From: Escherichia phage CJY920
Length of the DNA stretch: 64,000 nucleotides
Sequence record: PQ349265.1
Reading direction: 5' to 3' (one strand)
In this document: piece by piece, positions 15,951 to 57,933 of the stretch
Layout: each line of letters begins with the position of its first letter
Numbering within the stretch: position 1 is the first letter of the stretch
The notes under the pieces: model-generated
Told to the model about the DNA's origin: nothing
Seen by the model: only the letters and a program-made list of their open reading frames with translations
The model's database searches: none
Position numbers and translations under genes: made by a program

Positions 15951-15977
15951 TATTGCTTTATAAATTTTTGGTAAAAT
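15951..15977 (+). promoter_or_regulatory. candidate MotA-dependent middle promoter
   Basis: TGCTTTA MotA-box-like, about 11 nt, TAAAAT; preceded by UUCG hairpin at about 15935-15948. Confidence 0.4.
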
Positions 15978-16001: not shown

Positions 16002-16796
16002 ATGAATTATTTAAACATATATAATTCACTGATCGAAAAAGGACTAAACAGATGCAATGATAAAAGTCTTTTGACATACTATACTGAAACCCATCATATA
16101 ATTCCTAAATGCATGGGTGGTACAGATGATAAAACTAATTTAGTTCTTTTGACGCCAGAAGAACATTTTACCGCGCATTTATTGTTATTTAAAATTTATA
16201 GACTTCCTAAATTGGCTTTAGCTATTCGTATGATGTGTTATAGTTCTGACGGAACAAGACTAAATAATAAAATGTATGGATGGATTAAAACAGCTGTATC
16301 TTCCTCAATATCGGAAAGCATGAAAGAGTTCTGGAAAGATGATAATAATAAAAAATATATGTCTAACGCTAGACGAAATACTGGAAAACCAATTTATCAA
16401 TATGATTTAAATGGAAATTTTATTCGCAAATATAGATGTATTACAGACGCTGCAGAAGATATGTCATATAGATGTTCAAGTTCAATTAAACAGTGCGTAG
16501 ATGGGAAAAGGAAAACCGCTGGAGGATTTCAATGGAAATATTATTATTTTGATAACATAGGAAAGCCCTCTACGATGTCTAACACAACTAGACAAAAAAT
16601 GTCTAAGTCTAAACGTGGGATAACTCAGAAAAGAAATGTGCCAGTATTTCAATATGATACTGCTGGAAAATTATTACGAGTATTTCCTAAAATTAAAGAC
16701 GCAGCTGAATCCGTTAAAGGATGCATGTCTAATATTAAAAAGTGTATATCCGGAAAAAGTAAAATTGCTTATGGATACGTTTGGGCTTATTCGTAA
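16002..16796 (+). CDS. Mob-type HNH homing endonuclease (MobB-like by position)
   Basis: MNYLNIYNSLIEKG..., HHIIPKCMGG...NLVLLTPEEHFTAH; two C-terminal NUMOD1-like repeats. Confidence 0.8.
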   Translation: MNYLNIYNSLIEKGLNRCNDKSLLTYYTETHHIIPKCMGGTDDKTNLVLLTPEEHFTAHLLLFKIYRLPKLALAIRMMCYSSDGTRLNNKMYGWIKTAVSSSISESMKEFWKDDNNKKYMSNARRNTGKPIYQYDLNGNFIRKYRCITDAAEDMSYRCSSSIKQCVDGKRKTAGGFQWKYYYFDNIGKPSTMSNTTRQKMSKSKRGITQKRNVPVFQYDTAGKLLRVFPKIKDAAESVKGCMSNIKKCISGKSKIAYGYVWAYS

Positions 16797-21391: not shown

Positions 21392-21418
21392 TTATGCTTT
21401 AATTTATTAGAGTATAAT
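21392..21418 (+). promoter_or_regulatory. candidate MotA-dependent middle promoter
   Basis: TGCTTTA box, 11 nt, TATAAT. Confidence 0.45.
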
Positions 21419-21435
21419 CTCTATGGAGGAAAAAC

Positions 21436-21624
21436 ATGGAATATTCAACTGGACAGCATCTATTAACTATTCCTGAAATAAAACGATATATTCTGAGAAA
21501 TAATTTTTCTAATGAAGAGCATATAGTTACTGAATCTATGCTTAAGAATGCATTTAAATCAGAATATACGAAAATAATGTCCAACAGAAATGAAGCTTGG
21601 ACTGTTACTGATTATTATGACTAA
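21436..21624 (+). CDS. hypothetical protein (62 aa)
   Basis: ATG after GGAGGA SD. Confidence 0.5.
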   Translation: MEYSTGQHLLTIPEIKRYILRNNFSNEEHIVTESMLKNAFKSEYTKIMSNRNEAWTVTDYYD

Positions 21625-21633
21625 AGGTGTATT

Positions 21634-22023
21634 ATGACTAAAATTACTGTGAATTATACTGTTGATGTAAAAGATATTCAGCCAAAACACGTGCGTTCTG
21701 ATTCAAATCCACAAAACCAAAATAAAATTCGTCGAGCATGGGTTTTGTCTCTTTCTGATAACGCAATGGAAGTTATTCAGAACAAAATTAAATCTGCACC
21801 TGCTCGTCATGCGTATTATGAAGCTATCGATCGTGAAGTAAGTAATAAATGGATTGAACTAATGCGCAAACATACTACAGAATCCCTAAACGCCGGTGCT
21901 AAATTTATTATGACTTCATGTGGTGAACGCCTTGAAGATGATTATTGCGGTAATGCAGATGAACGTCTAATTGTTGCTGCTCAAATTGTTGCGGAAACAA
22001 TTGCTGCTGAGTTTAATAAATGA
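21634..22023 (+). CDS. rpbA: RNA polymerase-binding protein RpbA-like
   Basis: 129 aa, position immediately upstream of gene 45 region. Confidence 0.6.
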
Positions 22024-22907
22024 ATTTAGTATATCTTATTAGCTTTCCAGAGCGGGAAGCTAAAAATATTTTTCCGTGTTATTATATAGGTTCGAAAATT
22101 GACGCAATTTTCGATGGAACAAATATAATTGATTCAGCTGGAAAGATTTATACTGGAAGCGTGTCATCGAGTTATAGCGATGAATATTTTGAGCTTATTA
22201 AAACCACTAAATATACTGTTAAAATTTTAGCTGAAACTATATTAGATCCAAGAAAATTGGAAAGATTTTTTCAATTAAAAGTTAAAGCAAAAAGTAATAT
22301 AAAATATTTTAATAAAGCGTACGCAGATGAAAATACTTTAATTGGTGCTAAAGGATATGGAACATATAAAAATGTTTTAACTGGAAAAATTGTAAAGCTT
22401 TCGCAATCTGAAATCACGCCCGATTATGTTGGTATTCGTAAAGGTTACAAACATAGTTCTGACGTAAAATACAAAATATCTAATTCAATGAAGATTCACT
22501 GGACCGATGAGAAAAAGCTTAAACTCTCAAATAAGATGAAATTGAAATATCTTGATTGTAGTTATGCTAAAAAGTTTAGTGATATAATGAACTCAGAAAG
22601 TGTAAGATCAAAAATTTCTAAATCTCAAAAAGAATTATGGAATAATGCTGAAAGAAGACAGAGAGCTTCAATTCAAGCAACTGTTAGAAATAATTTACCG
22701 GAATTCAAATCAAAATTTAGAAAATCTAAAGCTAGAGGAACTTGGATTGAACATGAAGATGAATTAAAATCTTTATGGCATGCTTACGGAAAACCGAGTT
22801 ATAATAAATTTCGTAAAATTGCAGTAGCTAATGGGTTTAACGACGAATCTTATCAGGGTGCTGTACGGTCCTGGTCTAACTATTATGTAAATAGGAAATT
22901 GAAATGA
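22020..22907 (+). CDS. Seg-type GIY-YIG homing endonuclease
   Basis: N-terminal VYLISF...YYIGSK...YTGS GIY-YIG-like; repeated [35 protein letters not shown]-like motifs; ATGA overlaps on both sides. Confidence 0.65.
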
Positions 22908-23590
22908 AATTATCTAAAGACACGCTGAATATTTTGAAAAATTTCGCTACTATTAACTCTGGTATTATGCTTAAATCCGGTCAATTTATTATGACTCGCG
23001 CGGTTAATGGTACAACTTATGCGGAAGCAAATATTTCTGACACTATTGATTTTGATGTAGCAATTTACGATTTGAACGGTTTTCTCGGTATTCTGTCTCT
23101 AGTTAATGATGATGCAGAAATTTCCCAGTCAGAAGATGGTAATATTAAAATTGCTGATGCTCGTTCAACAATTTTTTGGCCAGCAGCCGATCCGAGTACA
23201 GTAGTTGCTCCTAATAAACCAATTCCATTCCCGGTAGCATCTGTTGTTACTGAAATTAAAGCTGAAGACCTTCAACAGCTGTTGCGTGTATCTCGTGGTC
23301 TGCAGATTGATACAATTGCTATCACAGTAAAAGAAGGTAAAATCGTAATTAACGGTTTTAATAAAGTAGAAGATTCTGCTTTGACTCGTGTTAAATATTC
23401 TTTGACTCTTGGTGATTATGATGGTGAAAATACATTTAATTTCATTATCAATATGGCAAATATGAAAATGCAACCAGGAAATTATAAACTTCTGCTCTGG
23501 GCAAAAGGTAAACAAGGCGCTGCTAAATTTGAAGGTGAACACGCGAATTATGTAGTAGCTCTTGAAGCTGATTCTACCCACGATTTTTAA
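22904..23590 (+). CDS. 45: sliding clamp gp45
   Basis: 228 aa [36 protein letters not shown]...; matches remembered T4 gp45. Confidence 0.9.
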   Translation: MKLSKDTLNILKNFATINSGIMLKSGQFIMTRAVNGTTYAEANISDTIDFDVAIYDLNGFLGILSLVNDDAEISQSEDGNIKIADARSTIFWPAADPSTVVAPNKPIPFPVASVVTEIKAEDLQQLLRVSRGLQIDTIAITVKEGKIVINGFNKVEDSALTRVKYSLTLGDYDGENTFNFIINMANMKMQPGNYKLLLWAKGKQGAAKFEGEHANYVVALEADSTHDF

Positions 23591-23592
23591 TA

Positions 23593-23610
23593 GAGGGCTT
23601 CGGCCCTTTA
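23593..23610 (+). terminator. UUCG hairpin
   Basis: agggc-ttcg-gccct then ttt. Confidence 0.5.
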
Positions 23611-23641
23611 TAATTTACACTAAAACTTGAATGAGGAAATT

Positions 23642-24601
23642 ATGATTACTGTAAATGAAAAAGAACACATTCTTGAACAGAAATATCGTCCATCTACTAT
23701 CGATGAATGTATTCTTCCCGCCTTTGATAAAGAAACCTTTAAATCTATTACAAGTAAAGGTAAGATTCCACATATTATTCTTCATTCTCCTTCTCCAGGA
23801 ACAGGTAAAACAACTGTAGCAAAAGCATTGTGTCATGACGTAAATGCTGATATGATGTTTGTGAATGGGTCAGATTGTAAAATTGATTTCGTTCGTGGTC
23901 CTTTGACTAATTTTGCTAGTGCAGCTTCATTTGATGGTCGTCAAAAAGTAATCGTCATTGATGAATTTGACCGTTCAGGGTTAGCAGAGTCTCAGCGACA
24001 TCTTCGTTCCTTTATGGAAGCTTATAGTTCAAACTGCAGTATTATTATTACTGCTAACAATATTGATGGTATTATTAAACCACTTCAGTCACGCTGCCGA
24101 GTTATTACGTTCGGTCAACCGACCGATGAAGATAAAATTGAAATGATGAAGCAGATGATTCGTCGATTGACTGAAATCTGTAAGCATGAAGGAATTGCTA
24201 TAGCTGATATGAAAGTTGTAGCAGCTTTGGTTAAAAAGAATTTTCCTGATTTTCGTAAAACTATTGGCGAGCTCGATAGTTATTCATCTAAAGGTGTTTT
24301 GGATGCTGGTATTTTATCACTGGTTACTAACGATCGTGGTGCTATTGATGATGTTCTTGAATCTCTCAAAAATAAAGATGTTAAACAGCTCAGAGCTTTA
24401 GCACCAAAATATGCAGCTGATTATTCGTGGTTCGTAGGTAAACTTGCCGAAGAAATCTATACACGCGTAACTCCACAAAGTATTATTCGTATGTATGAAA
24501 TTGTTGGTGAAAATAACCAGTATCATGGAATTGCGGCTAATACGGAATTACATTTAGCATATCTTTTCATTCAATTAGCATGCGAAATGCAGTGGAAGTG
24601 A
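23642..24601 (+). CDS. 44: clamp loader large subunit gp44
   Basis: 319 aa [17 protein letters not shown]...; Walker [11 protein letters not shown]; track start trimmed to ATG. Confidence 0.9.
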
Positions 24602-29536: not shown

Positions 29537-30277
29537 ATGATTAATGACTCTATGACAGTTGAAGAAATCCGTCTTCATTTGGGAATTGCATTAAAGGAAA
29601 AAGATTTCGTAGTTGATAAAACTGGTGTTAAAACTATTGAAATTATTGGCGCATCATTTGTAGCAGATGAACCTTTTATTTTTGGTGCTCTTAATGATGA
29701 ATACATTCAACGTGAACTTGAATGGTATAAATCTAAAAGTTTGTTTGTTAAAGATATTCCAGGCGAAACGCCAAAGATTTGGCAACAGGTAGCATCTTCT
29801 AAAGGTGAAATTAACTCGAATTATGGTTGGGCTATCTGGTCAGAAGATAACTATGCCCAGTATGATATGTGTTTAGCTGAACTTGGTCAAAATCCTGATT
29901 CTCGCCGCGGTATCATGATTTATACTCGTCCATCCATGCAGTTTGACTACAACAAAGATGGTATGTCAGATTTCATGTGTACGAATACAGTACAGTACCT
30001 GATTCGTGATAAGAAAGTCAATGCAGTAGTTAACATGAGAAGCAATGATTGCTGGGCAGGCTATCGTAATGATTATGCATGGCAAAAATACGTATTAGAT
30101 AAATTAGTATCTGATTTGAATGCAGGCGACCCATCGCGGCAATATAAAGCAGGTTCTATTATATGGAACGTTGGAAGTCTTCATGTTTACGAAAATCAGT
30201 TTTATTTAGTTGACCATTGGTGGAAAACTGGTGAAACTCATATTGCGAAAAAAGATTATAACGGTGAGTGGAAATGA
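29537..30277 (+). CDS. 42: dCMP hydroxymethylase gp42
   Basis: 246 aa MINDSMTVEEIRLHLGIALKEKDFVVDK...; matches remembered T4 gp42. Confidence 0.9.
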   Translation: MINDSMTVEEIRLHLGIALKEKDFVVDKTGVKTIEIIGASFVADEPFIFGALNDEYIQRELEWYKSKSLFVKDIPGETPKIWQQVASSKGEINSNYGWAIWSEDNYAQYDMCLAELGQNPDSRRGIMIYTRPSMQFDYNKDGMSDFMCTNTVQYLIRDKKVNAVVNMRSNDCWAGYRNDYAWQKYVLDKLVSDLNAGDPSRQYKAGSIIWNVGSLHVYENQFYLVDHWWKTGETHIAKKDYNGEWK

Positions 30278-31116
30278 TTCAATTCGTAATTCCAAGCTAT
30301 CAACGAGTAGGGGCAGTTTCTGCCCTTGATATGTTTCCGACTGATTATGAACCTCATATTGTAGTACGTGAACACGAAGAAAAAGCTTATTATGACGCTT
30401 ATGGGTCTAAAGCTAAAATTATAACTATTTCTGATGATGTCAATGGAATTGCTGGAACTCGTAAAGCAATTACTGATATGTATGCAGGTCAACGAATTTG
30501 GATGATCGATGATGATACTACTATTCGTATGAGTTCAATACGAAAGAGAGACGATAAACGGCGCGTAGATAAAGTCAATCAATTGACTCGTGAGCAATTC
30601 TATGAATTAATTCAATACGTTGAGGATGCCATGGATTGCGGGTATTATCATGGCCATGCTCGTCTACCAATTTTTAAAATTACTTCATCTTGGGGTAATT
30701 ATCGTGAAAATTCATATGGATTCACGAATACATGGTATGACCTTGGAAAACTTACGACAGAACAAATTGGGTATGGAAAAATTGATTTATGCGAAGATAT
30801 GTATGCATTTCTCAATTTAATTAATCAAGGTTATCCGCATTTGGCCTTGTTCAAATATCTAGTTGTATCTGGAAAATCACACGCTCCCGGTGGATGTAGT
30901 TCAATTCGTAGTAATTCTAAACATAATAGAGCGCTTGAGCAAATCAATAGAGAGTTTCCAGAGCAAGCTCGTTGGAAAACATCGAATATTGAAAAACGAA
31001 AATCGTTGGGTGAAGAAGATGAACCACTAAAGGTTCTTCGCATGTGTGTTTCGCGTAAAGAAAAATCAGAAGCATTTCATAAGTTTAATGCTATTCATCC
31101 AATAGCAGTTGATTAA
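30274..31116 (+). CDS. glycosyltransferase (GT-A-like, DxD), candidate DNA glucosyltransferase, not T4-type beta-gt
   Basis: 280 aa, WMIDDD DxD-like motif; occupies beta-gt locus between 42 and segA/uvsX but does not resemble T4 beta-gt (351 aa). Confidence 0.55.
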   Translation: MIQFVIPSYQRVGAVSALDMFPTDYEPHIVVREHEEKAYYDAYGSKAKIITISDDVNGIAGTRKAITDMYAGQRIWMIDDDTTIRMSSIRKRDDKRRVDKVNQLTREQFYELIQYVEDAMDCGYYHGHARLPIFKITSSWGNYRENSYGFTNTWYDLGKLTTEQIGYGKIDLCEDMYAFLNLINQGYPHLALFKYLVVSGKSHAPGGCSSIRSNSKHNRALEQINREFPEQARWKTSNIEKRKSLGEEDEPLKVLRMCVSRKEKSEAFHKFNAIHPIAVD

Positions 31117-31120
31117 TGAC

Positions 31121-31786
31121 ATGAAAAGACACAAAGAAAAGAAATATAATTATACTTATGTTATAACTAATTTAGTTAATAATAAAATTTACTACGGAAC
31201 TCATTCAACCGATGACTTAAATGATGGTTATCTGGGGTCAGGAACTTTATTAGCACAAGCCAAGAAAAAGTATGGTAAGAAAAATTTTAATTTAAGCATT
31301 CTTGGGTTTTATAAAGATTTTAAATCAGCCCGTGATGCTGAAAGAGAATTAGTAACAATAGATGTGGTAAATGATCCTATGACCTATAATTTAAAAATTG
31401 GCGGAGAGGGTGGTAGAAGAATTGGTTATAGAGTTTCATCAGAAACCAAAGAAAAAATTTCAAAAGCTCAAAAAGGAAAACCAAAACATCTTGGATTTAG
31501 TGATGTTTGCCGGAAAGCCCAGCTAGGCAAAAAGCAGTCAGAAGAAACTAAAGCAAAACGAAAAGAAGCTTTGCTTAATAATCCATATGGTTATAATAGA
31601 AATAAACCATCACATAAACGTGACCCAATAATGTGGGATAACATTGAAAAGATTAAAGAAATATGGGAAAACTCTGGAAAACCCGGTGCTATTAAGCTTA
31701 AAAAATTAGCAATTGAAGCTGGATTTCCAAATAAATCTTATGCAAGAATGCTCGAAGTATTTCGTGGAACAAGAACACTACTATAA
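31121..31786 (+). CDS. segA: Seg-type GIY-YIG homing endonuclease (SegA-like by position)
   Basis: 221 aa; YTYVITNLVNNKIYYGTHS GIY-YIG motif; NUMOD-like ETKEKISKAQKGKPK; located just upstream of uvsX. Confidence 0.7.
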   Translation: MKRHKEKKYNYTYVITNLVNNKIYYGTHSTDDLNDGYLGSGTLLAQAKKKYGKKNFNLSILGFYKDFKSARDAERELVTIDVVNDPMTYNLKIGGEGGRRIGYRVSSETKEKISKAQKGKPKHLGFSDVCRKAQLGKKQSEETKAKRKEALLNNPYGYNRNKPSHKRDPIMWDNIEKIKEIWENSGKPGAIKLKKLAIEAGFPNKSYARMLEVFRGTRTLL

Positions 31787-31794
31787 GGTATTAT

Positions 31795-32970
31795 ATGTCT
31801 GATTTAAAATCTCGTTTGATTAAAGCTTCTACTTCTAAATTGACTGCAGAATTAACAGCATCTAAATTCTTTAATGAAAAAGATGTAGTTCGAACAAAAA
31901 TTCCTATGATGAATATTGCACTTTCTGGTGAAATTACTGGTGGTATGCAATCTGGTCTGTTAATTTTGGCAGGTCCATCAAAATCATTTAAATCAAACTT
32001 TGGATTAACAATGGTGTCATCTTACATGCGTCAATATCCTGATGCAGTATGTTTGTTTTATGATAGTGAATTTGGTATTACTCCTGCTTATTTGCGGTCT
32101 ATGGGAGTCGATCCAGAACGAGTAATTCATACTCCGGTTCAATCACTTGAGCAATTACGTATTGACATGGTTAATCAATTGGATGCAATTGAACGCGGCG
32201 AAAAGGTAGTCGTTTTTATCGATTCACTTGGTAACTTAGCTTCTAAGAAAGAAACTGAAGATGCTTTAAATGAAAAAGTTGTTAGTGATATGACTAGAGC
32301 TAAAACAATGAAAAGCTTATTTCGTATCGTAACTCCCTATTTTAGTACTAAAAATATTCCATGTATTGCTATTAACCATACATACGAAACACAAGAAATG
32401 TTTAGTAAAACCGTTATGGGAGGCGGGACTGGACCGATGTATTCGGCTGATACGGTATTCATTATCGGTAAGCGCCAGATTAAAGATGGTTCTGATCTTC
32501 AGGGGTATCAATTTGTTCTAAATGTAGAAAAATCTCGTACCGTCAAAGAAAAAAGTAAATTCTTTATTGATGTTAAATTTGACGGTGGCATCGATCCTTA
32601 TTCTGGATTGTTAGATATGGCTCTTGAATTAGGATTTGTAGTAAAACCTAAAAACGGTTGGTATGCTCGTGAATTTCTTGACGAAGAAACCGGCGAGATG
32701 ATTCGCGAAGAAAAATCTTGGCGTGCAAAAGATACCAATTGCACTACATTCTGGGGTCCTTTATTTAAGCATCAACCATTCCGAGATGCTATTAAACGTG
32801 CTTATCAGTTAGGTGCTATTGATAGTAATGAAATTGTTGAAGCTGAAGTTGATGAATTGATTAACTCAAAGGTTGAAAAATTTAAATCTCCAGAAAGTAA
32901 AAGTAAATCAGCAGCTGATTTAGAAACTGACCTAGATCAGTTAAGTGATATGGAAGAATTTAATGAATAA
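31795..32970 (+). CDS. uvsX: recombinase UvsX (RecA-like)
   Basis: 391 aa; Walker A GPSKSFKS. Confidence 0.9.
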   Translation: MSDLKSRLIKASTSKLTAELTASKFFNEKDVVRTKIPMMNIALSGEITGGMQSGLLILAGPSKSFKSNFGLTMVSSYMRQYPDAVCLFYDSEFGITPAYLRSMGVDPERVIHTPVQSLEQLRIDMVNQLDAIERGEKVVVFIDSLGNLASKKETEDALNEKVVSDMTRAKTMKSLFRIVTPYFSTKNIPCIAINHTYETQEMFSKTVMGGGTGPMYSADTVFIIGKRQIKDGSDLQGYQFVLNVEKSRTVKEKSKFFIDVKFDGGIDPYSGLLDMALELGFVVKPKNGWYAREFLDEETGEMIREEKSWRAKDTNCTTFWGPLFKHQPFRDAIKRAYQLGAIDSNEIVEAEVDELINSKVEKFKSPESKSKSAADLETDLDQLSDMEEFNE

Positions 32971-33307
32971 AGATGATTTAGATTTAGATCTAGAAATTAT
33001 CGATGAATCCCCCTCTTCGGAGGGGGAAGAAGAAAGAAAAGAACGTCTTTTTAATGAATCTCTTAAGATAATTAAATCTGCCATGGAAAATGTTATCCAG
33101 GAGATTGTCATTAAACTAGAAGATGGTTCTACACATATAGTGTATGTAACTAAACTGGATTGGGTTGATGGAAAGGTTGTAATGGACTTTGCTGTTCTTG
33201 ACCAAGAAAGAAAAGCTGAGTTAGCTCCTCATGTAGAAAAATGTATTACAATGCAACTACAAGATGCATTTAATAAAAGGTCAAAGAAAAAATTTAAATT
33301 CTTTTAA
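32963..33307 (+). CDS. 40: gp40-like protein (start uncertain)
   Basis: ORF between uvsX and 41; acidic N-terminus; contains UUCG hairpin inside coding sequence. Confidence 0.5.
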   Translation: MNKDDLDLDLEIIDESPSSEGEEERKERLFNESLKIIKSAMENVIQEIVIKLEDGSTHIVYVTKLDWVDGKVVMDFAVLDQERKAELAPHVEKCITMQLQDAFNKRSKKKFKFF

Positions 33308-51686: not shown

Positions 51687-51713
51687 ATTCCCGAAACCAA
51701 ACGAGGATAAGTG

Positions 51714-53264
51714 ATGATTAAGAATGAAATTAAAATTCTGAGCGATATTGAACATATCAAAAAGCGTAGCGGCATGTATATTGGCTCTTCTGCTAATGAA
51801 ATGCATGAGCGCTTTCTGTTTGGTAAATGGGAAAGTGTTCAGTATGTACCTGGTCTTGTTAAGCTTATTGATGAAATTATCGATAACTCAGTAGATGAAG
51901 GTATTCGTACTAAGTTTAAATTCGCAAATAAAATTAGTGTTACTATTAAAAACAATCAAGTAACAGTTGAAGATAACGGTCGCGGTATTCCACAGGCGAT
52001 GGTTAAAACACCTACTGGTGAAGAAATTCCTGGTCCTGTTGCTGCATGGACTATTCCAAAAGCAGGTGGTAACTTTGGTGATGATAAAGAACGCGTCACT
52101 GGCGGTATGAATGGTGTTGGTTCTAGTTTGACAAACATTTTTTCTGTGATGTTTGTCGGTGAAACTGGTGATGGTCAAAATAATATTGTAGTTCGTTGTT
52201 CAAATGGCATGGAAAATAAATCATGGGAAACTATTCCAGGAAAATGGAAAGGAACTCGTGTTACTTTCATTCCTGATTTTATGTCATTTGAAACTAATGA
52301 GCTGTCCCAAGTTTATCTTGACATTACACTAGATCGTCTCCAGACACTTGCAGTAGTTTATCCTGATATTCAATTTACCTTTAATGGTAAAAAGGTTCAG
52401 GGCAATTTTAAGAAATATGCACGCCAATATGATGAGCATGCTATCGTTCAAGAACAAGAAAATTGCTCTATTGCGGTTGGTCGTTCACCGGATGGTTTTC
52501 GTCAATTAACTTATGTGAATAACATTCACACTAAGAATGGTGGCCATCACATTGACTGTGTTATGGATGATATTTGTGAAGACCTTATTCCACAAATCAA
52601 ACGTAAGTTCAAAATTGATGTGACTAAAGCACGCGTTAAAGAATGTTTGACTATCGTTATGTTTGTCCGTGATATGAAAAACATGCGATTTGATTCTCAA
52701 ACTAAAGAGCGTTTGACTTCTCCATTTGGTGAAATCCGTAGTCATATTCAACTTGATGCTAAAAAGATTTCACGTGCTATTCTAAATAATGAAGCAATTC
52801 TAATGCCGATTATTGAAGCTGCTTTGGCTCGTAAATTGGCGGCAGAAAAAGCAGCAGAAACTAAAGCAGCTAAAAAGGCTTCTAAAGCTAAGGTTCATAA
52901 ACATATTAAAGCGAATCTTTGTGGTAAAGATGCTGATACTACTCTTTTCTTGACTGAGGGTGATTCGGCTATCGGATATCTTATTGATGTTCGTGATAAA
53001 GAACTTCACGGTGGTTATCCATTACGTGGTAAAGTTCTCAACAGTTGGGGTATGTCATATGCTGACATACTTAAAAACAAAGAACTGTTTGATATTTGCG
53101 CAATCACTGGATTAGTTCTCGGTGAAAAGGCGTTTGAAGAAAAAGAAGATGGCGAGTGGTTTACTTTCGAACTAAATGGCGATACAATTATCGTAAATGA
53201 AAATGATGAAGTACAGATTAATGGTAAATGGATAACAGTAGGTGAATTACGAAAAAATCTATAA
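51714..53264 (+). CDS. 39: topoisomerase II large subunit gp39 (GyrB-like ATPase)
   Basis: 516 aa; GHKL ATPase motifs (IDNSVDE, GRGIP); GAGG SD. Confidence 0.9.
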   Translation: MIKNEIKILSDIEHIKKRSGMYIGSSANEMHERFLFGKWESVQYVPGLVKLIDEIIDNSVDEGIRTKFKFANKISVTIKNNQVTVEDNGRGIPQAMVKTPTGEEIPGPVAAWTIPKAGGNFGDDKERVTGGMNGVGSSLTNIFSVMFVGETGDGQNNIVVRCSNGMENKSWETIPGKWKGTRVTFIPDFMSFETNELSQVYLDITLDRLQTLAVVYPDIQFTFNGKKVQGNFKKYARQYDEHAIVQEQENCSIAVGRSPDGFRQLTYVNNIHTKNGGHHIDCVMDDICEDLIPQIKRKFKIDVTKARVKECLTIVMFVRDMKNMRFDSQTKERLTSPFGEIRSHIQLDAKKISRAILNNEAILMPIIEAALARKLAAEKAAETKAAKKASKAKVHKHIKANLCGKDADTTLFLTEGDSAIGYLIDVRDKELHGGYPLRGKVLNSWGMSYADILKNKELFDICAITGLVLGEKAFEEKEDGEWFTFELNGDTIIVNENDEVQINGKWITVGELRKNL

Positions 53265-54060
53265 TGACTTAATAGTGCGGGGTAAAACCCGCGTTTCTAA
53301 ATTTAAGGGTGAAATTCATCATATCCTTCCAAGATCAATGGGAGGTTCTGATGATAAAGAAAATTTGGTGAAACTGACTTTTCGTGAACATTTTTTAGCA
53401 CATTTTCTACTATATAAAATTCATCGTAATCGTGAAATGGCATATGCGATGAATAGAATGTTAAACACTGAAAAATATTTACGTTCTAGTAAATTATATG
53501 AAATTGCTAGAATTTACCATCAAAGAGCAGTATCTGAATGGTCAAAAAACTTTATGAAAGATAAAGTTTTAATGAGAAGTATTAAATCGGGTAAATGCGC
53601 CTTATTAATTAAAGGATCATTTAACCCAAAGGAATGGTGCGGTGTTAATAAAGGTGTTAAGCTTCCTGGAATTAAAGGCATGACATGCTTTAAAAATGAA
53701 AAAGGCGAAGTTTTTCGTCTTCATGTTAATGATCCACGCATTAAAGCTGAAAAATTAGTTGGTATTGGAAATACTGTTGCTGCTACTGCAAAAGCAGCTG
53801 AACTTGAAAAAGCGAAACCATGGTATAATAAATCAGCGACAAATCCAGAGGCTGTAAAATTAATACCAAATTTATATGAATGGTACGTCACGAAATATGA
53901 CCCCGATCATTATAAACGAACGGGAGTTGCTAAATGGAAATCAGTTAATAATATAACTGTGAATTCAAAATTATTCGGCCGAGCATTTAATGAATTTAAA
54001 CGCGGTTGGATTCCTGATGAAAAGTTCTATGAGGTGTATAATGAAATTTGTAAAAATTGA
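53242..54060 (+). CDS. mobA: Mob-type HNH homing endonuclease (MobA-like, between 39 and 60)
   Basis: MNYEKIYNDLI..., HHILPRSMGG...NLVKLTFREHFLAH; GTG start inside last 23 nt of gene 39. Confidence 0.75.
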   Translation: MNYEKIYNDLIVRGKTRVSKFKGEIHHILPRSMGGSDDKENLVKLTFREHFLAHFLLYKIHRNREMAYAMNRMLNTEKYLRSSKLYEIARIYHQRAVSEWSKNFMKDKVLMRSIKSGKCALLIKGSFNPKEWCGVNKGVKLPGIKGMTCFKNEKGEVFRLHVNDPRIKAEKLVGIGNTVAATAKAAELEKAKPWYNKSATNPEAVKLIPNLYEWYVTKYDPDHYKRTGVAKWKSVNNITVNSKLFGRAFNEFKRGWIPDEKFYEVYNEICKN

Positions 54061-54573
54061 TTCTTCTAGCGTTGATATGAAAAAATATAAATTGCAGAAC
54101 AATGTTCGTCGTTCTATTAAATCCTCTTCAATGAACTATGCGAATGTCGCTATTATGACAGACGCAGATCACGATGGATAGCCTTCGGGCTATCTATAGA
54201 AATACCTCATAATTAAGAGATTATTGGATTAGGTTCTATTTATCCTTCTCTGCTTGGATTTTTTAGTAATTGGCCAGAACTGTTTGAGCAAGGACGAATT
54301 CGCTTTGTCAAAACTCCTGTAATCATCGCTCAGGTTGGTAAAAAACAAGAATGGTTTTATACAGTCGCTGAATATGAGAGTGCTAAAGATGCTCTACCTA
54401 AACATAGTATTCGATACATCAAGGGATTGGGCTCACTTCAGCGGGATGAATATAAAGAAATGATTCAAAACCCTGTGTACGACGTAGTTAAACTTCCTGA
54501 AAATTGGAAAGAACTATTTGAAATGCTCATGGGTAACGACCCTGAACTCCGTAAAGATTGGATGCTAGGATAA
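54041..54573 (+). CDS. 60: topoisomerase II small subunit gp60, join(54041..54178,54229..54573) via 50-nt translational bypass
   Basis: MKFVKIDSS...AIMTDADHDG to take-off GGA then UAG; landing GGA 54226-54228; resumes LGSIYPSLLGFFSNWPELFEQGRIRFVK...; 46+114=160 aa. Confidence 0.85.
54179..54228 (+). other. gene 60 coding gap (ribosomal hop) with take-off stem-loop
   Basis: UAG stop inside UUCG hairpin (gga-tag-cc-ttcg-gg-cta-tc); matching GGA codons 50 nt apart. Confidence 0.8.
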
Positions 54574-55370
54574 TGAATTATCGTAAAATTTATGATAAAC
54601 TTATCGCTGCGGCTAAAAACCGCAGCACTATTCCTAATTATACTGAAACTCACCATATTTTGCCTAAATCTATGGGCGGGAGTAATGCTAAATCAAATCT
54701 AGTTAAAATGACCCCTAGAGAGCATTTTATCGCCCATTTATTGCTTTATAAAATTCATAAGAACCGTTCTATGCTTATGGCTATTAGAGCTTTTTACATG
54801 GGAGCTAGAAATTCTAGAGATTATGATTGGCTTAAACAAGAATTCTCTAAAGAGCACTCTAGATTTATGAAAGAATGGATTGCTAAAAATGGCAACCCAT
54901 TTAAAGGTAAAAAACATACTAAAGCAACAAGAGAATTAATGTCACATATTGCTTCACAACGTATAGGCGAATTAAATCCATTTTATGGTAAAACTCATAC
55001 GCAAGAAGCAATAGATAAAATAATACAGGCTAACAAGTTATCTTGGGAGAATGGGCGAAAAGCACCTGTAAAAACAAAAGAACACCAGGATAAAATAACT
55101 AAATCAAGAATGGAAACATTTAAAACAAAAGGATTTAAACCATACACTCCTAGGTCAGAAGAAACTAAAGCTAAGACTAGAGAGTTGTATAAATCTAAAT
55201 ATGAAAGAAGGCCTATAAGAATCACAAGTGTAAAAACAGGCGAAACTATTGATTTTAACTATCTTTATGAATTAAGGGAGTATTTAGATATAGGGTCTTC
55301 TAATATATTGAAAGCATTAAATAATCCTAACAGAACCTGCAAAGGTTATAAAATGTGTTGGATGTCCTAA
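54573..55370 (+). CDS. Mob-type HNH homing endonuclease
   Basis: MNYRKIYDKLI..., THHILPKSMGG...NLVKMTPREHFIAH; NUMOD3-like NPFYGKTHT; ATG overlaps gene 60 TAA. Confidence 0.75.
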   Translation: MNYRKIYDKLIAAAKNRSTIPNYTETHHILPKSMGGSNAKSNLVKMTPREHFIAHLLLYKIHKNRSMLMAIRAFYMGARNSRDYDWLKQEFSKEHSRFMKEWIAKNGNPFKGKKHTKATRELMSHIASQRIGELNPFYGKTHTQEAIDKIIQANKLSWENGRKAPVKTKEHQDKITKSRMETFKTKGFKPYTPRSEETKAKTRELYKSKYERRPIRITSVKTGETIDFNYLYELREYLDIGSSNILKALNNPNRTCKGYKMCWMS

Positions 55371-55755: not shown

Positions 55756-57933
55756 ATGATTATCACCACTGAAAAAGAAACAATTCTTGGTAATGGTTCT
55801 AAATCAAAAGCATTTAGCATCACAGCATCTCCTAAAGTATTTAAAATTCTGTCATCTGATTTGTATACAAACAAGATTCGCGCAGTAGTTCGTGAATTGA
55901 TTACCAACATGATTGATGCCCATGCTCTTAATGGAAATCCTGAAAAATTTATCATTCAAGTTCCTGGACGTTTAGATCCACGATTTGTTTGCCGAGATTT
56001 TGGTCCGGGTATGAGCGATTTTGATATTCAAGGTGATGATAATTCTCCTGGGTTGTATAATTCATACTTTAGTTCATCTAAGGCTGAATCTAACGATTTC
56101 ATTGGTGGATTTGGTTTAGGTTCTAAATCTCCGTTTAGTTATACTGATACATTTAGTATTACTTCATATCATAAAGGCGAAATTCGTGGTTATGTAGCTT
56201 ACATGGATGGTGATGGTCCACAGATTAAACCTACATTCGTAAAAGAAATGGGTCCAAATGATAAAACTGGTATTGAAATCGTAGTTCCAGTTGAAGAAAA
56301 AGATTTTAGAAACTTTGCTTATGAAGTTTCTTATATCATGCGACCATTCAAAGATTTGGCTATCATTAATGGTCTTGACCGTGAAATTGATTATTTTCCG
56401 GATTTTGATGACTACTACGGCGTAAATCCAGAAAGATACTGGCCAGATCGTGGTGGATTGTATGCTATCTATGGTGGTATTGTTTATCCTATTGATGGTG
56501 TTATTAGAGACCGTAACTGGTTAAGCATTCGCAATGAAGTGAATTACATTAAGTTTCCAATGGGTTCACTTGATATTGCTCCATCACGTGAGGCTCTTTC
56601 ACTAGATGATCGTACTCGTAAAAATATTATTGAGCGTGTTAAAGAGCTTAGTGAGAAAGCATTTAATGAAGATGTAAAACGATTTAAAGAATCTACATCT
56701 CCTCGTCATACATACCGTGAATTGATGAAGATGGGATATTCTGCTCGAGATTATATGATTAGTAATTCGGTCAAATTCACGACTAAAAATCTGTCATATA
56801 AGAAGATGCAAAGCATGTTTGAACCTGACAGTAAGTTATGCAATGCAGGGGTTGTGTATGAAGTAAATCTTGACCCTCGACTGAAGCGCATTAAGCAAAG
56901 CCATGAAACTTCAGCCGTTGCGTCAAGCTATCGTCTGTTTGGTATTAATACGACAAAAATTAATATTGTTATTGATAATACTAAAAATCGTGTTAATATT
57001 GTCCGTGGATTAGCACGTGCATTAGATGATAGCGAATTTAATAACACCTTAAATATTCATCACAATGAGCGTCTTCTGTTTATTAATCCGGAAGTAGAAT
57101 CACAGATTGATTTACTCCCTGATATTATGGCAATGTTTGAAAGTGATGAAGTTAACATTCATTATTTGTCAGAAATTGAAGCTTTAGTTAAAAGTTATAT
57201 TCCAAAGGCAGTAAAAAGTACAGCTCCTCGTCCTAAAACTGCCACTGCATTTAAGTTTGAAATTAAAGACGGGCGTTGGGAAAAAGAGGAATTGTTTACG
57301 CTCACATCAGAAGCAGATGAAATTACTGGTTATGTAGCATACATGCATCGTTCTGATATTTTCTCTATAGATGGTACTACATCGCTTTGTCATCCATCTA
57401 CGAATATTTTGATTCGTATGGCTAATCTTATTGGCATTAATGAATTTTATGTTATTCGTCCGCTTTTGCAGAAAAAGGTAAAAGAACTTGGTCAGTGCCA
57501 ATGTATTTTTGAAACTTTGCGTGATTTATATGTAGATGCTTTTGATGATGTAGATTATGATAAGTATGTAGGTTATTCAAGTTCAGCTAAACGATATATT
57601 GATAAAATTATCAAGTATCCTGAGTTAGATTTTATGATGAAGTACTTCAGTGTAGATGAAGTTTCTGAAGAATATACACGACTCGCTAATATGGTTAGTT
57701 CATTACAGGGTGTATATTTCAACGGTGGAAAAGATACCATCGGTCATGACATCTGGACAGTAACTAATCTTTTTGATGTATTATCAAATAATGCTTCAAA
57801 AAACAGTGATAAAATGGTTGCTGAGTTTACCAAGAAATTCCGTATTGTTTCCGACTTCATCGGTTATCGCAATTCTTTAAGTGATGATGAAGTTTCCCAA
57901 ATCGCTAAAACTATGAAGGCCCTTGCGGCCTAA
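55756..57933 (+). CDS. rIIA: rIIA protein
   Basis: 725 aa [30 protein letters not shown]...; matches remembered T4 rIIA. Confidence 0.9.

Follow-up and report, generated by a model that had tools for sequence, protein, structure and literature searches.

A probable SegG-type homing endonuclease gene between rpbA and the sliding-clamp gene 45 of Escherichia phage CJY920

The 64,000-nucleotide stretch of Escherichia phage CJY920 DNA analyzed here (PQ349265.1; hereafter, the window) carries, between rpbA and gene 45, an extra open reading frame (ORF) that is in all likelihood a free-standing homing endonuclease gene, encoding a GIY-YIG nuclease of the SegG type followed by NUMOD3-like helices and a SegA-like module. 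The ORF is a previously uncharacterized but ordinary member of the well-known class of T4 mobile endonucleases. More tentatively, and with somewhat less than even confidence, we suggest that it belongs to a lineage specialized on the start of the clamp gene in three Tevenvirinae genera, with a target site that abuts the insertion (gene 45 codons 1-7), with carriers recoded at that site, and with the gene 45 promoter P45 captured by the element. Some GenBank records label the ORF “homing endonuclease” or “putative homing endonuclease” and many give only hypothetical protein; our literature search found no paper on an endonuclease at rpbA/45. The gene and the two edges of the insert that contains it are as follows.

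22020..22907, plus strand: probable free-standing homing endonuclease gene, SegG-like GIY-YIG type, 295 aa (from PHROGs matches, identity with SegG, and dN/dS)
22018..22023, plus strand: left insert edge, comprising the last rpbA codon AAA (CGT in non-carriers) and the TGA that overlaps the endonuclease ATG
22893..22898, plus strand: right insert edge, the gene 45 Shine-Dalgarno sequence AGGAAA, within the last endonuclease codons (from ~22893 on, T4 and SP21535 align again)

The ORF opens with an ATG and is tied to both of its neighbors by ATGA overlaps, as an earlier, sequence-only reading of this DNA had stated: at 22020-22023 the rpbA stop TGA (22021-22023) overlaps the ATG of the ORF (22020-22022), and at 22904-22907 the gene 45 ATG (22904-22906) overlaps the ORF's own stop TGA (22905-22907). 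The same reading named the flanking genes correctly, both assignments being backed by Pfam matches, with RpbA upstream (PF10789, E 4e-42) and the sliding clamp gp45 downstream (PF09116, E 1e-51; PF02916, E 8e-32). It was right, too, in expecting rpbA and gene 45 to be adjacent in T4, where only a 55-bp spacer (32604-32658) lies between rpbA (32659-33048) and gene 45 (31917-32603). The gene order of the window, 46, 45.2, rpbA, ORF, 45, 44, 62, is thus that of T4 plus the extra ORF.

Comparison of the rpbA-45 interval among related phages, as that reading had proposed, reveals an insertion: T4 and ~96% of the records of related phages are without the ORF. A megablast search with positions 21400-23700 matched 642 phage records, the whole query being covered in 24 of the 642; among the matches listed, the records without the insert show 62% query coverage in two pieces, which means that the flanks alone match. 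Because the 24 carrier records include GenBank/RefSeq duplicates, they correspond to ~20 distinct carrier phages, one of which, the isolate Bas45 PaulHMueller (complete genome record, locus tags bas45), we take to be a member of the BASEL collection. The ORF is likewise absent from all 16 of the IMG/VR loci retrieved with gp45, loci that served as non-carrier controls only. In global alignments against T4 and Shigella phage SP21535, the borders fall at 22017/22018 and ~22892/22893, such that a cassette running from ~22018 to 22892 stands in place of the 55-bp T4 spacer, with clean boundaries and with flanks that are 98-99% identical to those of non-carriers. Alleles of 55-62% identity occupy exactly the same rpbA/45 site in the Mosigvirus phages FL31 and AV115 and in the Gaprivervirus phage VR26, and alignment of FL31 with the Mosigvirus-like non-carrier L014 shows the swap of cassette for spacer again. 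Presence or absence of the ORF is therefore polymorphic at one fixed intergenic site among close relatives, and the ORF is neither universal in T4-like phages nor, as set out below, without catalytic residues.

The protein can be divided into four parts, for which the following coordinates apply.

22020..22334, plus strand: N-terminal GIY-YIG domain, aa 1 to ~105, with V4-Y5, Y22-I23-G24-S25-K26, Y44-x-G46-S47, E81, and F97-N98
22356..22436, plus strand: three-stranded beta region, aa 113-138, with K117, K123, R/K126, L127, V137, and G138 conserved in the family (AF2 model, alignment)
22437..22724, plus strand: NUMOD3-like helical repeats, aa ~140-235 (NUMOD3 score, homologues, AF2 helices 147-233)
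22737..22889, plus strand: C-terminal helical module, aa ~240-290, common to the window's SegA-like endonuclease (BLASTP, AF2 model)

The affinity of the N-terminal domain with SegG is seen in both profile and pairwise comparisons. The ORF matches two PHROGs “homing endonuclease” families, phrog_655 (E 2e-31) and phrog_7504 (E 3.3e-17, over aa 1-103), the latter of which is the T4 SegG family, since SegG itself matches it at 1e-133. Over the same aa 1-103, the identity with T4 SegG is 39% (BLASTP, pairwise E 5e-16). We set aside phrog_655 as a sign of catalytic type, because the window's HNH mob-like ORFs match the same PHROG via their NUMOD3 regions. An exhaustive HMMER search of a 1.8-billion-protein library yielded 130 homologues at E ≤ 1e-3, and alignment of 97 of these provides the conservation figures given here. 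Y22, G24, K26, Y44, S47, and N98 are invariant among the 97, while V4, Y5, P19, I23, S25, E81, and F97 are conserved at 90% or more (Y5 and E81 at 99%, F97 at 95%), and the window protein keeps every one of these invariant and highly conserved residues.

The AF2 model of the protein is confident (pLDDT 88 overall and 97 for the first 40 residues), and upon it the elements of a GIY-YIG nuclease can be located. The “GIY” box is represented by V4-Y5-L6 on strand 2-8 and the “YIG” box by Y22-I23-G24 on strand 21-26; the counterpart of the metal-binding Glu (I-TevI E75, motif D) is E81, in helix 77-87, and that of the conserved Asn (I-TevI N90, motif E) is N98. The domain has an alpha/beta fold with a three-stranded sheet. 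This fold is I-TevI-like, and the GIY-YIG enzymes 9u75_A, UvrC (1ycz_A), and T4 EndoII (2wsh_A) also appear. The one motif residue left over is I-TevI R27 (motif B), with which no family-conserved Arg could be aligned by sequence, helix 54-62 holding no conserved Arg; the only conserved basic residues near that position are the invariant K26 and R12 (85%). R27 could not be placed because the family profile, when compared by hhalign with just the catalytic domain of I-TevI, gave a probability of 1% and because a MAFFT alignment that included I-TevI mis-registered the YIG box. Active T4 SegG displays the same constellation of residues, likewise without an alignable R27.

Several general searches returned no match: the ORF has none to Pfam PF01541 (GIY-YIG) at E ≤ 1, the NCBIfam scan assigned it to no family, and neither a phmmer search of PDB sequences with the single protein nor Foldseek with the whole AF2 model found a match. 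As T4 SegG also is without a PF01541 match, the Pfam model does not cover this clade. DUF7132 was considered as a family and discarded, its score of 16.5 bits falling short of the cut-off of 27. Taken together, four of the five motif residues and the fold support membership in the GIY-YIG superfamily, and the GIY-YIG-like N-terminus that had been proposed from the letters alone is upheld by V4-Y5 and Y22-I23-G24, by homology to SegG, and by the I-TevI-like fold.

Beyond the catalytic domain, AF2 secondary structure places strands at 113-118, 124-128, and 136-138, and this beta region is probably a linker or DNA-contact element. The earlier proposal of NUMOD-like repeats in the stretch that follows stands in part. 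The best repeat of the protein itself (aa 140-158) scores 16.6 bits (E 0.0075) against Pfam NUMOD3 (PF07460), below the 20.4 cut-off, while 72 of the 97 homologues have NUMOD3 matches at E ≤ 0.01 and, in 1i3j, the DNA-binding domain of I-TevI, the NUMOD3 helix is matched by the family profile (E 7.5e-4). The repeats are presumed to be minor-groove DNA-binding modules. The C-terminal module, modeled as helices 241-255, 261-270, and 276-289, is presumed to be a sequence-specific DNA-binding domain, and its aa 247-278 are 38% identical over 32 aa to the C-terminus of the window's SegA-like protein (BLASTP, E 1e-5). Judged by these similarities, the protein is a modular chimera in which a nuclease of the SegG type is joined to NUMOD3-like repeats and a tail of the SegA type.

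No convincing Shine-Dalgarno sequence or recognizable promoter of the ORF's own was found, and its translation is probably coupled to that of rpbA through the ATGA overlap, at a low level. The lack of a promoter of its own fits the class of promoter-less cassettes to which segG belongs (PMC2988022). In T4, the MotA-dependent middle promoter P45 has its transcription start at 32626 (PMC2988021, Table 1), inside the 55-bp spacer, where we read it as TGCTTTA-N12-TAAAAT, one base past the rpbA stop. Since the cassette replaces this spacer, P45 is deleted in carriers of the insert. A candidate replacement lies within the endonuclease gene.

22781..22805, plus strand: candidate MotA-dependent middle promoter for gene 45, inside the endonuclease coding sequence, TGCTTAC-N12-TATAAT, predicted start ~22812

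In FL31 and VR26, whose alleles are 55-60% identical, the corresponding stretch is TGCTTTA-N12-TATATT, which agrees perfectly with the MotA box as published, TGCTTtA, and with its spacing of 12 ± 1 bp (PMC2988021); the window's own box is imperfect (TGCTTAC vs TGCTTtA). The window holds 10 occurrences of the pattern TGCTT-N13-15-TAWAAT, where 1.3 would be expected; nine of the 10 are on the coding strand, and two of the matches fall exactly at T4 P45.2 and P46i(2) after coordinate transfer. Given the conserved motif, the enrichment, and the recovery of T4 promoter positions, the cassette appears to have brought, or to have evolved, a substitute P45, and middle-mode transcription of gene 45 most likely now starts from the motif at 22781-22805. 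Embedded promoters of this kind are documented for segG/gene 32 and for further genes of the seg and mob groups (PMC2988022). The motif could also be conserved on account of the conserved peptide that it encodes, LW.A.GKPSY. With respect to late transcription, no TATAAATA was found near the ORF. Hairpins at 22005-22031 and 22039-22063 were considered as translational or terminator controls and rejected: their z-score is only -2.0, the former is broken by SNPs in other carriers, and FL31 is without both.

The start of gene 45 itself differs between carriers and non-carriers, as the first 20 nucleotides of the gene make plain.

22904..22923, plus strand: gene 45 5' end in recoded form (ATGAAATTATCTAAAGACAC), a variant linked to the endonuclease gene; candidate site of recognition or immunity
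Non-carriers (13 of 20 loci, from more than one genus): ATGAAACTGTCTAAAGATAC
Tequatrovirus carriers: ATGAAATTATCTAAAGACAC
Mosigvirus carriers: ATGAAACTTAGCCGTGAAAC
VR26 (Gaprivervirus carrier): ATGAAATTTAGTCGTGACAC

Over the junction, each of the 24 carrier records from Tequatrovirus has 98% identity or more with the window. When six carriers are compared with nine non-carrier Tequatroviruses, only six fixed differences between the two groups are seen within ±950 nt of the insert, three of them making up the last rpbA codon (AAA in carriers, CGT in non-carriers) and the other three being silent and falling in codons 3 and 6 of gene 45 (22910, 22912, and 22921). In the Mosigvirus carriers and VR26, whole codons are switched within the same 9 nt, TCT to AGC/AGT (Ser) and AAA to CGT (Lys to Arg). 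The carrier-type start was found in only three non-carrier records, RPN226, LH2, and ERS-1, and so the recoded start is no one-to-one marker of the endonuclease. We read the recoding as the probable result of target-site immunity or of co-conversion of donor flanks, both of which are homing signatures. The pattern of substitutions points to a putative target site at the gene 45 start, with flanking co-conversion, and lends indirect support to the localized gene conversion of gene 45 that the sequence-only reading had envisaged. For characterized T4 endonucleases of the free-standing kind, the cut is usually hundreds or thousands of bp away from the insertion site (PMC2988022). For this reason the target could be outside the gene 45 start, and it is by inference that we place it at that start.

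Seg-type homing endonucleases drive marker exclusion and localized gene conversion between co-infecting T-even phages, and the clamp encoded by gene 45 is used both in replication and as the activator of late transcription. Under the mechanism that we propose, the enzyme would, in a mixed infection, cut genomes that do not have the gene, at or near the conserved gene 45 start ATGAAACTGTCTAAAGATAC, whereupon recombinational repair would copy in the endonuclease gene together with the adjoining end of rpbA and start of gene 45. Carriers would escape cutting because their gene 45 codons 3-7 are recoded. The insert would have removed P45, with the embedded MotA-box/-10 promoter taking over transcription of the clamp gene, and deletion of the element would be penalized in consequence. 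If this is true, middle-phase clamp expression depends on a selfish gene, an arrangement that amounts to an anti-deletion lock, and the ORF would skew how the end of rpbA and the 5' end of gene 45 are inherited. The locus would then be a compact case in which known principles are joined, namely target recoding in an essential gene, independently in three genera, lock-in of a selfish element by promoter replacement, and modular shuffling that unites a SegG-type nuclease with a SegA-type DNA-binding tail; the current picture of how such elements work would be unchanged.

With a promoter embedded in it, the DNA would be kept by selection whatever the activity of the enzyme, and one may ask if the ORF is a decaying or inactive homing endonuclease relic, kept only for the promoter and Shine-Dalgarno sequence of gene 45. 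Broken copies do occur, that of EC121 having a +1 frameshift at codon ~19 and that of AV115 being split into two ORFs; such copies also fit the invasion-and-decay cycle of homing endonucleases. The relic explanation would further accommodate the want of a detectable conserved equivalent of I-TevI R27 and the failure to reach threshold with either Pfam model, GIY-YIG or NUMOD3. However, dN/dS is 0.08-0.11 between close alleles (dS ~0.07) and ~0.2 between diverged ones, and because the overall range of 0.08-0.25 applies to the whole ORF, selection has acted on the protein and not just in the 3' region that holds the promoter. All family-invariant residues have been kept, the same set of motifs is found in the experimentally active SegG (PMC2988022), and the ORF is intact in five of the six close copies inspected, EC121 being the exception, with full-length ORFs annotated elsewhere. 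On balance, we regard a relic as unlikely.

A domesticated protein that serves the phage, be it as a DNA-binding regulator of clamp expression or as a nuclease that attacks competitor or host DNA, seems to us more improbable still, even though the ORF lies immediately upstream of an essential gene for replication and late transcription and has a multi-module DNA-binding region, and though a precedent exists in I-TevI, which doubles as an autorepressor (PMC2988022). A selfish element is the better fit to the growth of ~96% of close relatives without the ORF, to its clean, cassette-like boundaries, to the toleration of decayed copies, and to the gene 45 recoding, which is linked to the ORF in three genera and has the character of a homing or immunity signature. 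That so many GenBank records say only hypothetical protein might bring to mind a chance ORF or mis-annotation without a product, a notion already refuted by the 130 homologues, the confident AF2 model, and the purifying selection, and by the 55-62% identity that is kept across three genera; its probability is negligible. A homing endonuclease gene thus remains our preferred explanation of the ORF, and it can be set beside three well-studied relatives.

The nearest of these in catalytic domain is T4 SegG (formerly gp32.1), an experimentally active free-standing GIY-YIG endonuclease that is encoded between genes 32 and 59 and cuts gene 32 (PMC2988022). The two have conserved N-terminal residues in common, and both genes are free-standing, share the orientation of their neighbors, have no promoter of their own, and are followed directly by an essential replication gene with promoters inside the endonuclease gene (PMC2988022), a candidate promoter in the case of the ORF. 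SegG is, however, a protein of 210 aa that aligns with the 295-aa ORF over aa 1-103 alone, the C-terminal two-thirds of SegG being unrelated to the ORF product, which has NUMOD3-like repeats and a SegA-like C-terminal module; SegG is inserted at 59/32 rather than rpbA/45. As both the C-terminal two-thirds and the locus differ, the ORF is not an orthologue of SegG. Moreover, whereas the inferred target of the ORF adjoins the insert, the title of the SegG paper speaks of a “distant cleavage site” (PMC2988022).

I-TevI, the endonuclease of the T4 td intron, resembles the ORF product, with its probable NUMOD3-type minor-groove helix, in having such a helix, and both are modular, with a nuclease, a linker, and a DNA-binding domain. 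The I-TevI gene lies in an intron, and the enzyme possesses a zinc finger and R27, whereas the ORF is free-standing, is without an alignable R27, and carries 27 inserted residues, among them the Y44-x-G-S47 motif, between the YIG box and helix 1; the catalytic domains have no detectable similarity at the sequence level. SegA and the window's own SegA-like ORF (31109-31786) share the architecture of the present ORF, with a GIY-YIG domain followed by NUMOD3 (NUMOD3-like in the present ORF) and then a C-terminal helical module, and on both sides the 3' end holds a middle promoter that serves the next gene downstream (PMC2988022), that of the present ORF being a candidate. The SegA-like protein, unlike the ORF product, is recognized by the Pfam GIY-YIG model (E 2.8e-9), and its catalytic domain belongs to PHROG 314 as opposed to 7504. 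Nonetheless, hhalign of the ORF family profile against the SegA-like protein gives a probability of 90%, pairing Y44-x-G-S47 with GYLGSG, E81 with the Glu of “...DAERE...”, and N98 with the Asn of “YNLK”.

Among the relatives of the window phage, two copies of the rpbA/45 endonuclease gene are decayed: in EC121 (L025, near position 1690) one extra C shifts the frame within the GIY-YIG domain, while in AV115 (L022, 1501-2395) the gene is split into ORFs of 179 aa and 120 aa. RPN226 (L028), LH2 (L031) and ERS-1 (L032) are without the endonuclease and retain the T4-type rpbA-45 spacer with its middle promoter P45, and the start of their gene 45 is of the recoded type seen in carriers (ATGAAATTATCTAAAGACAC). 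These three loci may represent resistant alleles or the products of endonuclease loss.

Two carriers of the rpbA/45 endonuclease also feature a different homing endonuclease, annotated on the opposite strand:

L027 (Salmonella phage F13076) 227-943, minus strand, 238 aa, between genes 46 and 45.2
L004 (phage FL31) 81-797, minus strand, 238 aa, between genes 46 and 45.2

The window is without this second gene. Because of its presence in F13076 and FL31, the 46-45 interval appears to be a hotspot for homing endonuclease insertions.

Elsewhere in the window, endonuclease-type ORFs and associated promoter motifs are found as follows:

15954-15977, plus strand, perfect MotA-box/-10 motif (TGCTTTA...TAAAAT), immediately 5' of the next ORF
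16002-16796, plus strand, mob-like HNH + NUMOD1 endonuclease ORF, 264 aa (HNH E 4.5e-6, NUMOD1 E 3e-23)
31109-31786, plus strand, SegA-like GIY-YIG + NUMOD3 endonuclease ORF (Pfam GIY-YIG E 2.8e-9)
31572-31597, plus strand, MotA-type promoter motif
53242-54060 and 54558-55370, plus strand, a pair of ORFs for mob-like endonucleases, matching phrog_655 (E 1e-56/-57), NUMOD3 (E 5e-9) and, weakly, HNH

The second promoter motif lies inside the 3' end of the SegA-like ORF, upstream of a 391-aa ORF at 31795 that, by T4 gene order, is probably uvsX; this is the same embedded-promoter layout as that proposed for the rpbA/45 endonuclease gene. The mob-like pair is flanked by ORFs of 517 aa (51711-53264) and 725 aa (55756-57933), which we take from T4 gene order to be gp39 and rIIA, respectively. 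With the rpbA/45 gene counted in, the window therefore has at least five endonuclease-type ORFs.

At the start of the rpbA/45 endonuclease gene, two RNA hairpins of uncertain significance are predicted, with a z-score of only -2.0:

22005-22031, plus strand, hairpin over the endonuclease AUG
22039-22063, plus strand, 10-bp stem followed by AAAUAUUUUU

The latter looks like a terminator. The former is broken by SNPs in other carriers, and neither is present in FL31.

One further ORF may bear on DNA modification:

30268-31116, plus strand, 282 aa, match to PF20691 (TET-associated glycosyltransferases) at E 2e-9

It occupies about the place of the beta-glucosyltransferase gene on the T4 map; this would suggest that the DNA glucosylation gene set differs from that of T4.

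The phage genome looks like a mosaic Tequatrovirus: the top records for 25001-50000, ranked by coverage x identity, reach only ~95-96% identity at 92-96% coverage (two records are >=99% identical over a span not stated), versus 99-100% identity with Lv5cm and F13076 in the rpbA-45 region.
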